From contig OZ296650.1 in the NCBI GenBank assembly GCA_965655095.1, positions 62,868,001 to 62,932,000 on the forward strand: 64,000 bases of DNA. The letters are read 5' to 3'. The DNA is from Haplodiscus bocki (lineage: Eukaryota). This document shows, piece by piece, positions 41,776 to 42,945 of the stretch (position 1 is the stretch's first letter; every line of letters starts with the position of its first letter). The notes below the pieces were generated by a model that had not been told where the DNA came from, made no database searches, and was given only the letters and a program-made list of their open reading frames with translations. The translations under genes were made by a program, and so were the position numbers.

Positions 41776-42945
41776 ATGTACGATCGCTCCAATCGCAAAT
41801 TTGCGCGAGCCTGCGAGTGGGAAAAATTGGGTTGGCAGGCAGTTCCAATTTTAAACGGAGATGGTTTATCTAGTTGGGAATCCTTGGAAGCCGTCCATTT
41901 TAAAAACAGGCGAGTGTTTGGCTGCGCAGATGATATTCCGTATGAAATAGCTAATCAATCGTTGATTACTTGGAAAGGAATACCGAAATGTTTAGCGAAG
42001 AAATCTATGGTTGGTTTAAAAAACTGGGTTGCGCAGAAAGCGTACAACGTTCCAGTTAAAAAGCTGCTATGTAAGGACAAGTTATTCGCACAGTCAAAGG
42101 GATGGGCTATGGATCTCTCTCAATTGGTGGAGATGGAAGTCCCTTCATATTTGAATTTACAAGAGCAAAATTCGACTATTACATGGGGTGGCTGGTTTAC
42201 CAAAGGGCACGTGGAAATTGCTGGTGACGAGTCAGTGGCGTGCGTACCTTTGGGCAGAAAGGCGTTTTTGATTGCAAAACGGGGCCCTGCATCGAAATTT
42301 TTAACCAATCAAACTAAATGTGCTAAGGAATTTACGAAGTTTGTGGAAGGAGGTCCTCCTGCGCGGTATAAGCACAAAATTTTTTGTTTTTTAAGTAAGA
42401 AAAACAGTTTGCTTATTCAACCTGCGTTATGTGCCCATTCAGTTTTGACTTTTAGTCAAGGTGTTGCTATGGTCGCTGGATGGGAAGCCGGAAATGACCT
42501 GGATTCTGTACGCGTCAAAGAAGTAACCAACAATTATGGTTTTGGGGTGGGAAAACGAACTTTATCGCTCATAAAATCTAAACCCAAAAAGCATCGTGGG
42601 CAAATGATTGAACCTTTAAAACACCAGGGGACCAATGATGTTACTGACTTATTGGAACGGTTGCAAAAACAAAATAAATGGATTGATAGTTGGGAGAAAG
42701 GAAAGCAAGGAAGACCAACGCTTGAAAAACGAAAATCTCGGGCACGGAATTTACCTTGTGTTAAGAATTGCAAAAAAACGAATCCCCAGAAACGGTTAGG
42801 GAATAAAAAATCTTTTGTTTTTTGTTTTTTTTTGTTTTTTTTTGTTTTTTTTCTGGTTTTCTGTTTTTTTTTTGTTTTTTTTTGTGTAATCTGCTTTGAA
42901 TCTTTCAGCCGACTCATTTCTAGTCTCGAAAAACAGGTAAACTAG
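41776..42945 (+). CDS. JmjC-like Fe(II)/2-oxoglutarate dioxygenase, antisense within the LTR element
   Basis: WFTKGHVEIAGDESVACVPLGRKAFLIA...LLIQPALCAHSVLT...MVAGW parallels the KDM2/KDM7 pattern T-x-x-H-x-D...G-x-K-x-F...IP-x-x-x-x-H-x-V-x-T. The last ~45 codons run into a T-rich tract and are probably not genuine. Confidence 0.8.
   Translation: MYDRSNRKFARACEWEKLGWQAVPILNGDGLSSWESLEAVHFKNRRVFGCADDIPYEIANQSLITWKGIPKCLAKKSMVGLKNWVAQKAYNVPVKKLLCKDKLFAQSKGWAMDLSQLVEMEVPSYLNLQEQNSTITWGGWFTKGHVEIAGDESVACVPLGRKAFLIAKRGPASKFLTNQTKCAKEFTKFVEGGPPARYKHKIFCFLSKKNSLLIQPALCAHSVLTFSQGVAMVAGWEAGNDLDSVRVKEVTNNYGFGVGKRTLSLIKSKPKKHRGQMIEPLKHQGTNDVTDLLERLQKQNKWIDSWEKGKQGRPTLEKRKSRARNLPCVKNCKKTNPQKRLGNKKSFVFCFFLFFFVFFLVFCFFFVFFCVICFESFSRLISSLEKQVN

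Follow-up and report, generated by a model that had tools for sequence, protein, structure and literature searches.

Among the closest described systems are the giant viruses endogenized in Amoebidium, whose KDM4-like JmjC genes lack reader domains, contain introns, and have multiplied; in the sections of the report drawn on here, these genes are proposed to counter H3K9me silencing (PMC11244446). Fungal DNA transposons carry TET/JBP dioxygenases, which are often transferred between lineages and are proposed to act against silencing, and part of that study states that no retrotransposon was found with such an enzyme (PMC12730594). Arthropod Copia elements reportedly have a captured MBD (PMC6673714), and passages of a further report describe fusions of chromo, PHD, and SET domains with mobile elements (10.1101/2021.11.30.470311). 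Metazoan env-carrying Ty3/gypsy elements, including Oikopleura Tor, appear in excerpts as comprising gag, a pol of the order PR-RT-RH-IN, env, and LTRs, with an internal promoter in the pol–env region of the Tor elements (PMC13524379, PMC4402516). In the main text of the env-gypsy survey, the terms JmjC, antisense, macro, and accessory have no occurrence (PMC13524379).

How retrotransposons counter H3K9 methylation is an open question, and few element-encoded enzymes are known. A JmjC-type gene of Haplodiscus bocki, which lies antisense in the slot between env and pol of a Ty3/gypsy element, is a concrete candidate. One genome offers many divergent variants of this gene, an alternative slot gene, and elements without the JmjC gene for comparison.

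The Element and Its Genes

The DNA studied, hereafter the window, is a stretch of 64,000 nt from H. bocki (GCA_965655095.1, contig OZ296650.1, 62,868,001–62,932,000, forward strand). It contains a minus-strand Ty3/gypsy element with LTRs, a primer-binding site, gag, a pol in the order PR-RT-RH-IN, and env. Comparison of the LTRs places the 3′ LTR at 37642–38560 (−) and the 5′ LTR at 51918–52832 (−), with 98.2% identity across 919 columns; a primer-binding-site-like stretch starting with TGG (51893–51917, −) adjoins the latter. The gag gene (50177–51325, −) has a CCHC zinc knuckle in a different frame near 50225. The pol gene (44362–50163, −) encodes a protease, a weak dUTPase-like stretch (E 0.037), RT, RNase H, integrase, and a C-terminal Macro domain downstream of the integrase; it is split across several frames, which change near 47400, 47080, and 44780, and the Macro domain (44362–44900, −) is a single domain divided by a frame change. 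The long env-like gene (38895–41042, −) has one in-frame stop near 40770 and a hydrophobic segment at its C-terminus; it gave no significant Pfam match and no PDB sequence match, and it may encode a fusion glycoprotein (F or gB type), putatively of class I. The CpG observed/expected ratio of 0.78–1.08 indicates no clear CpG depletion in the element.

Two small frames accompany these genes, and neither has a family match. The first follows pol in the sense direction (43865–44251, −) and recurs in many copies; it is one of two related small sense frames between 43400 and 44251 (−), one of them broken here, that recur across copies. The second is antisense (41252–41467, +), upstream of the slot, and combines a Cys-rich ectodomain-like part with a hydrophobic C-terminal segment; its relatives occur in 36/40 and 18/34 of the loci described below, and one subtype has a signal-peptide-like start. 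Elsewhere in the window, positions 1–27000 hold a tandem array whose units of about 2.65 kb are 97–100% identical and have an inner periodicity of 103 nt. Broken frames at 30778–31976 (+), which we take to resemble a Polinton/Maverick-type major capsid gene, gave no Pfam match, and similar genes flank loci L040 and L057. The 5′ LTR is adjoined by a direct repeat with 1.27 kb spacing and palindromic ends (52952–54654); at 57259–60473 lies an element whose inverted arms, of about 190 nt, are 2.8–3.0 kb apart.

The Antisense Reading Frame

The JmjC-type oxygenase gene occupies 41776–42945 (+), antisense to the element. Unspliced, its frame extends from the ATG at 41776 to the TAG at 42943–42945 and comprises 389 aa. 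The first-pass annotation of this DNA had recognized a single open plus-strand frame antisense to gag, pol, and env, with the ATG at 41776, His at 42208, Glu at 42214, Lys at 42259, and His at 42436, and these positions are exact; however, it ended the frame at 42810, where no stop occurs. Splicing toward the 3′ end of the gene probably yields a product of about 351 aa. Thr142, a 2OG residue (PHF8 Thr244), and the Fe ligands His145 and Glu147 (PHF8 His247 and Asp249) are encoded at 42199–42216 (+), the 2OG-binding Lys162 (PHF8 Lys264) at 42259–42261 (+), with its distance from the Thr as in PHF8, and the distal Fe ligand His221 (PHF8 His319) at 42436–42438 (+). A C-terminal helical region (residues 244–335; 42505–42794, +) ends in a conserved basic helix, which would serve in nuclear or chromatin targeting. 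A putative GT-AG intron with a T-rich tract (42795–42908, +) precedes a short terminal exon reaching the TAG at 42943–42945.

The open state of the frame amid broken gag, pol, and env had been noted as a distinctive feature. The lesions are real; however, a frame of 1 kb would escape 4–6 breaks over about 9.6 kb with a chance of 0.53–0.65, and other close JmjC copies (76–94% identity) are split or carry stops, so the intact frame in the window copy is no evidence of selection. The evidence for selection lies at the level of the family and not in the window copy alone.

Predicted Fold and Structural Neighbors

From a single sequence, the protein was folded with a pLDDT of only 38, while the model derived from an alignment of 106 sequences reached a pLDDT of 90.8 and a pTM of 0.84. 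A Foldseek search with this model returned KDM7A and PHF8 in the top five rows (E 2e-9 to 7e-9), followed by TYW5 at rank 6, PHF2, ceKDM7A, and JMJD6. In a structure comparison against 48,161 chains, the first 16 rows were all JmjC proteins (Z 14.6–12.1). The double-stranded beta-helix core with JmjC-type flanking elements is present in the model, and the triad resides on the expected strands, 140–145 and 220–225. The initial assignment to the JmjC-type dioxygenases is borne out by this core and by the Foldseek rows, the top ones being JmjC throughout. By the predicted fold and the cofactor residues, the protein is a JmjC-type Fe/2OG oxygenase with predicted activity, and we consider it very probably active as a catalyst. 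A weak Pfam/PDB sequence match of the single protein to snurportin (E 0.05–0.5) was dropped once the fold was obtained, and the matches of profile A1 to the PDB were coiled-coil noise only. The viral structure library yielded generic JmjC/2OG matches only, at 6–17% identity.

By structure score, the KDM2/7 proteins are tied with the hydroxylases JMJD6, JMJD5, TYW5, and JMJD7 (Z 13.4–14.8), and the tie was repeated in a second comparison. JMJD5 aligned over 194 residues (Z 14.6–14.7, rmsd 3.4–3.5), JMJD6 over 235–238 (Z 14.5–14.8, rmsd 4.2–4.4), PHF2 over 246 (Z 14.5, rmsd 4.2), KDM2A over 245 (Z 14.0, rmsd 4.2), and ceKDM7A over 257 (Z 13.9, rmsd 4.5). The alignments of KDM7/PHF2/KDM2A and JMJD6, and likewise that of KDM5, reach residue ~309, whereas that of JMJD5 stops at 239. 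The sixth rank of TYW5 in both the Foldseek search and the comparison against 48,161 chains, together with a basic tail that could bind RNA, raises the alternative of a TYW5-like oxygenase modifying tRNA or element RNA and thereby tuning frameshifting or priming; part of a study linking wybutosine status to retroelement frameshifting counts in its favor (PMC2938197). However, TYW5 scores no better than the KDMs, aligns over 201–204 residues against about 250, and leaves no sequence signal, and we regard such an RNA enzyme as very improbable.

Active Site and Kinship

Among 36 open frames of the same genome, mostly 23–30% identical to the query, both His residues are invariant, and Glu147, Lys162, and Thr142 are each at least 90% conserved. 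In a wider alignment that includes fragments of decayed copies, the triad residues are kept in 87/97 (H), 91/101 (E), and 76/85 (H) cases, Lys162 in 95/101, and Thr142 in 90/97; the full triad is found in 58 of 76 aligned homologues, and the 18 without it are mostly such fragments. The earlier claim of an intact metal triad with a 2OG lysine thus extends to the homologues. The 2OG is predicted to be handled by Lys with Thr, not by R-x-S, in the register of Lys264 and Thr244 in PHF8. None of the 36 family members scored above the cut-off of the Pfam JmjC models PF02373, PF08007, and PF13621, and PF17811 gave no match among them; this miss is a detection limit of the library and not a structural feature.

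A likeness to KDM2/KDM7 had also been proposed, and it holds as a weak, repeated best match. Family profiles retrieve PHF8 and ceKDM7A in 4/5 and 5/9 rows with E values of 0.3–0.9, which are not significant; in the PHF8 match, the residues T, H, D/E, K, and H stay exactly in register, both along Thr244–Lys264 and around His319, and the family shares H-x-V-x-T after the distal His with KDM2/7. The host has an intron-containing KDM7-type gene, two exons of which score highest, though weakly, among 8 host JmjC pieces: these exons were top with each of three family profiles (best 4.8, 8.5, and 7.7 bits), shuffled controls reaching at most 2.0 bits (A3 profile). In the Atlas features of the homologue P0004, the named neighbors are JmjC clusters (0.92–0.95), and the third family set is JMJD6-like. 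The KDM2/KDM7 likeness is offset by the structural tie with JMJD6 and JMJD5 and by missing KDM7-defining features. According to excerpts of structural reports, PHF8 holds the 2OG carboxylate through Tyr257, Asn189, Lys264, and Thr244, and positions the methyl-lysine through Ile191, Phe250, and Asn333 (PMC9516565, PMC13632499). In the element protein, Asp249 is replaced by Glu147, Phe250 by Ile/Thr (Ile148), and Tyr257 by Ala155; Asn333 probably matches the conserved Glu237, and conserved acidic residues, Asp151/Asp-Glu152 and Glu237, occupy positions that are neutral in KDM7. Neither the frame nor the model revealed a PHD, CXXC, or Tudor domain. Owing to the altered pocket and the lack of a reader domain, the protein is not a KDM7 member, and a distant descent from a KDM2/7-like host gene is a question on which we judge the evidence evenly poised. 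The substrate is not readable from ancestry, since there is no Pfam JmjC match among the 36 members and the identity to solved JmjC proteins is only 11–15%.

An active oxygenase may instead modify a non-histone protein, i.e., a JMJD5/JMJD6/JMJD7-like hydroxylase or Arg/Lys demethylase that disables a host defense factor, for example through methyl-arginine marks on PIWI proteins or through splicing or translation factors. The first place by Z shared by JMJD6 and JMJD5, the JMJD6-like third Atlas set, and the absence of a histone reader are consistent with this, and Arg or Lys would go well with the conserved acidic residues; a Macro domain is encoded by the same elements, and the slot can hold a gene with a putative OTU-like motif, both typical of anti-host enzymes that erase protein modifications. 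However, the sequence register fits best with KDM2/7 and not with JMJD4/6, and the basic C-terminal helix suggests the nucleus or chromatin. On balance, a non-histone target, including the examples named, appears rather unlikely, and the substrate is about equally likely to be, or not to be, a histone methyl-lysine.

Copies, Selection, and Exchange

A scan of its own genome (1.5 Gb) yielded 1066 candidate places for the gene, and 117 of these gave a scored match. Stretches of 10 kb were taken around 40 of these matches, picked as long, mostly open, and divergent; in all 40 loci, the JmjC gene is antisense to the element genes, on the expected side and in the pol–env interval, with env in 38, part of pol in 36, and both in 34. 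These many antisense copies confirm that the gene is element-encoded and rule out a processed host gene restricted to one copy. At G000:C3:70460113-70468263, three identical broken JmjC cassettes stand in tandem with 3.56 kb spacing.

A reverse test started from 97 integrase matches; by eye, about 50 had a listed JmjC match nearby, and 34 of the other 47 were fetched. Of these 34 loci, 15 contain the JmjC gene; the slot holds another antisense gene in 7, the interval is shortened in 8, and no env is seen within 8 kb in 4. The elements with the other slot gene or a shortened interval, some of which keep long open pol frames, indicate that the JmjC gene is not essential for spread. The alternative slot gene (L126:3895-5189 +, L127, L128:4163-5200 +, L132, L142, L143, L145) gave no Pfam match and is divided into pieces by GT-AG-like introns, whose positions correspond between copies; the pieces presumably resemble an integrase H2C2-like region and an OTU-like cysteine protease motif. 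A small sense frame is nested in the slot of these elements.

Selection was estimated from 171 pairs of 19 open frames, 35 of them at least 48% identical. In the 14 of these 35 with measurable dS, dN/dS was 0.10–0.27, dS being saturated in the other 21; most measurable dS values exceed 1.5 and the ratios are hence rough, the cleanest pairs giving 0.27 (dS 0.15) and 0.14 (dS 0.76). By these sequence comparisons, the JmjC gene is under purifying selection.

JmjC and integrase trees of 30 rows cover the window plus the 29 loci among the 40 in which neither gene was too short, and they disagree. The window integrase is 91–95% identical to those of L043, L046, L051, and L066, whose JmjC cores are just 33–39% identical to that of the window, whereas the window JmjC groups with L070 (99/98), whose integrase falls in the other 100/100 clade. 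As read from the trees, the JmjC cassette predates the element backbones and moves between them.

Of the 1.84 billion representatives in public libraries, 347 are relatives at E values of at most 0.001, with no named member among those read in 10 public clusters. Eight short metagenome contigs encode relatives, and env, Macro, or a small neighbor frame is found on four of them; none of 11 pattern matches on viral contigs proved to be a relative. P0082, P0091, P0104, P0116, P0126, and P0132 are distant full-length public homologues (20–27% identity), one with the first His replaced; for P0132, no close copy was found in the H. bocki genome.

A Probable Antisense Transcript and Intron

The column that ends the conserved frame is GT in phase 1 in 25 of 30 copies, against 27% for glycine codons generally, and the GT persists when the codon switches from Gly to Ser. 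In the window subtype, the donor at 42795 and the acceptor at 42908 are kept in 10 of 12 close loci. The intron-like spacer measures 43–114 nt; its length can have any remainder on division by 3, and beyond it the frame is kept for 11 codons. In L126, L128, and L145, which are divergent copies, the interruptions of the alternative slot gene fall at corresponding positions and are bounded by GT and AG. The conserved splice donor suggests, at the level of sequence, that the JmjC gene has its own antisense spliced mRNA and would be expressed from the reverse strand. We reason that a retroelement can keep such introns, its genomic RNA being of the opposite strand. An AATAAA at the frame end was rejected as a conserved poly(A) signal (9/19 frames within 550 nt; background 23/66), and the T-rich tract nearby is better read as part of the intron. 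A conserved TATA box was not found upstream of the frame (3/19).

A Second Lineage with the Gene inside the LTRs

The distant homologue P0118 has 2072 candidate places in the genome, and 93 of 150 scored places of this type have a same-strand partner 13.4–16.2 kb away. In the two elements examined (G000 C10, ~59.92–59.94 Mb; C5, ~2.66–2.68 Mb), the homologue is antisense inside both LTRs, which are 4.1–4.3 kb long and 98.7–99.8% identical; the JmjC frames are L106:6368-7444, L108:826-2001, L109:6257-7360, and L111:961-2088, all on the plus strand. With the gene inside the LTRs, each insertion and each solo LTR would carry it. These recently inserted elements have gag, pol, and env, with a Macro domain between RNase H and integrase (L107 ~3667–3960, −), and their RT and integrase are about 25% and 29% identical to those of the window lineage. 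A sense frame of 280–300 aa follows env. The homologues have weak Pfam JmjC scores (E 0.017–0.075), a dN/dS of 0.14, and a triad kept in 94 of 110 public relatives (120 of 229 matches examined).

Two alternatives that dispense with catalysis or with function bear on these counts. JmjC proteins may act without turnover, as the fission-yeast Epe1 does. The element protein could thus be a non-catalytic or weakly catalytic binder that blocks or diverts a methylated histone or a silencing protein, as the incomplete triad of 18/76 homologues and the fast divergence of surface residues might suggest. However, the incomplete cases are mostly decayed-copy fragments, and both lineages retain the triad, Lys, and Thr at about 90%, a level that would be difficult to account for if the protein were not catalytic; a mere binder is improbable. 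A neutral passenger, i.e., a captured host fragment copied along with no function for the element, would be in keeping with the absence of the gene from 19 of the 34 elements in the reverse test and with the broken close copies of the window subtype. The dN/dS of 0.10–0.27 largely refutes it; moreover, synonymous sites are saturated between cassette types while the catalytic residues stay, and the gene occurs in both lineages, with an RT identity of about 25% between them, and keeps a conserved splice donor. A functionless passenger is therefore scarcely credible.

Host Chromatin and the Proposed Mechanism

A PF02373 search of the host genome gave six places, which we take by motif to be of the KDM5, KDM6, KDM4, JMJD4, and JMJD6 types. 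The genome also has two chromo-preSET-SET genes, presumably of the Suv39 type. None of four C5 DNA methyltransferase candidates matched in an exon-by-exon search of the host, a result by which absence is thus not proven. The chromo-preSET-SET genes, the lack of a DNMT match, and an element that is not clearly CpG-depleted make histone marks the likely route of silencing. An anti-silencing role, as raised when the frame was first read, is plausible and fits this toolkit.

We propose that the JmjC gene is an accessory counter-defense gene of env- and Macro-bearing Ty3/gypsy elements. Transcription from the reverse strand would give it a spliced mRNA of its own, the intron surviving passage through the genomic RNA, and the encoded protein would be a JmjC Fe(II)/2-oxoglutarate oxygenase that stands alone and has a basic helix in its C-terminal part. 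Acting in the nucleus, the enzyme would remove a repressive methyl-lysine mark, most plausibly H3K9me2/3, and thereby keep the element LTRs transcribable. Other repeats would probably be affected too, given that the protein has no reader or DNA-binding domain; such a reader-less enzyme may act broadly or be aimed by its C-terminal helices. That the gene serves the element against the host is likely. For the specific role of a demethylase that the element encodes against silencing, with H3K9 methylation as its probable target, the arguments for and against are of equal weight. We advance more tentatively, and with some doubt, the broader reading that a retrovirus-like lineage encodes a KDM2/7-like histone demethylase in a swappable antisense slot and inside LTRs, erased H3K9 methylation, and expanded to thousands of copies in a genome whose silencing relies on histone marks, which would make it the first eraser known from LTR retroelements and a new, Pfam-invisible JmjC family.

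Comparison with Known Systems

Titles and abstract starts in the openly accessible full-text literature revealed no JmjC gene in an LTR retroelement. As standard domain searches miss this JmjC family, such captures may have been undercounted when mobile elements were surveyed for chromatin genes.

The element protein shares with KDM2/KDM7 (PHF8, KDM7A/KIAA1718, PHF2, KDM2A, and ceKDM7A) the JmjC fold, with alignments of ~245–258 residues that extend over the N-terminal part and into the helices after the beta-helix (rmsd 4.1–4.7, Z 13.8–14.7), and an identical Thr-to-Lys spacing; it differs in having Glu for the ligand Asp, in being devoid of PHD, CXXC, and F-box, and in its antisense location in retroelements. 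With JMJD6, JMJD5, JMJD7, and TYW5, it has in common the stand-alone JmjC architecture and tied Z scores; however, there is no sequence-profile match to these proteins, and JMJD5 lacks the C-terminal helical region.

The Amoebidium genes, as far as the sections used here describe them, are alike in that a genomic parasite carries a JmjC-only, reader-less enzyme, and unlike in that the carrier is a giant DNA virus of a protist and the genes are Pfam-recognizable and placed in KDM4. The H. bocki gene, in contrast, belongs to an animal LTR retroelement, is antisense, lies below Pfam detection, and is KDM2/7-like at best. The fungal TET/JBP genes, on the same partial basis, resemble it as Fe/2OG enzymes serving as transposon accessory genes but belong to DNA transposons and act on 5mC. 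DNMTs have reportedly been captured by retrotransposons (de Mendoza 2018). Such captured chromatin proteins likewise place host chromatin functions on LTR or other retroelements; however, these act as readers or writers and are in most cases fused to a protein of the element, whereas the H. bocki gene is a separate, antisense, putative eraser. Mobile elements with a chromatin-type Fe/2OG enzyme are thus a known kind, and what is new, by the literature covered, is a JmjC gene in an LTR retroelement, conserved there.
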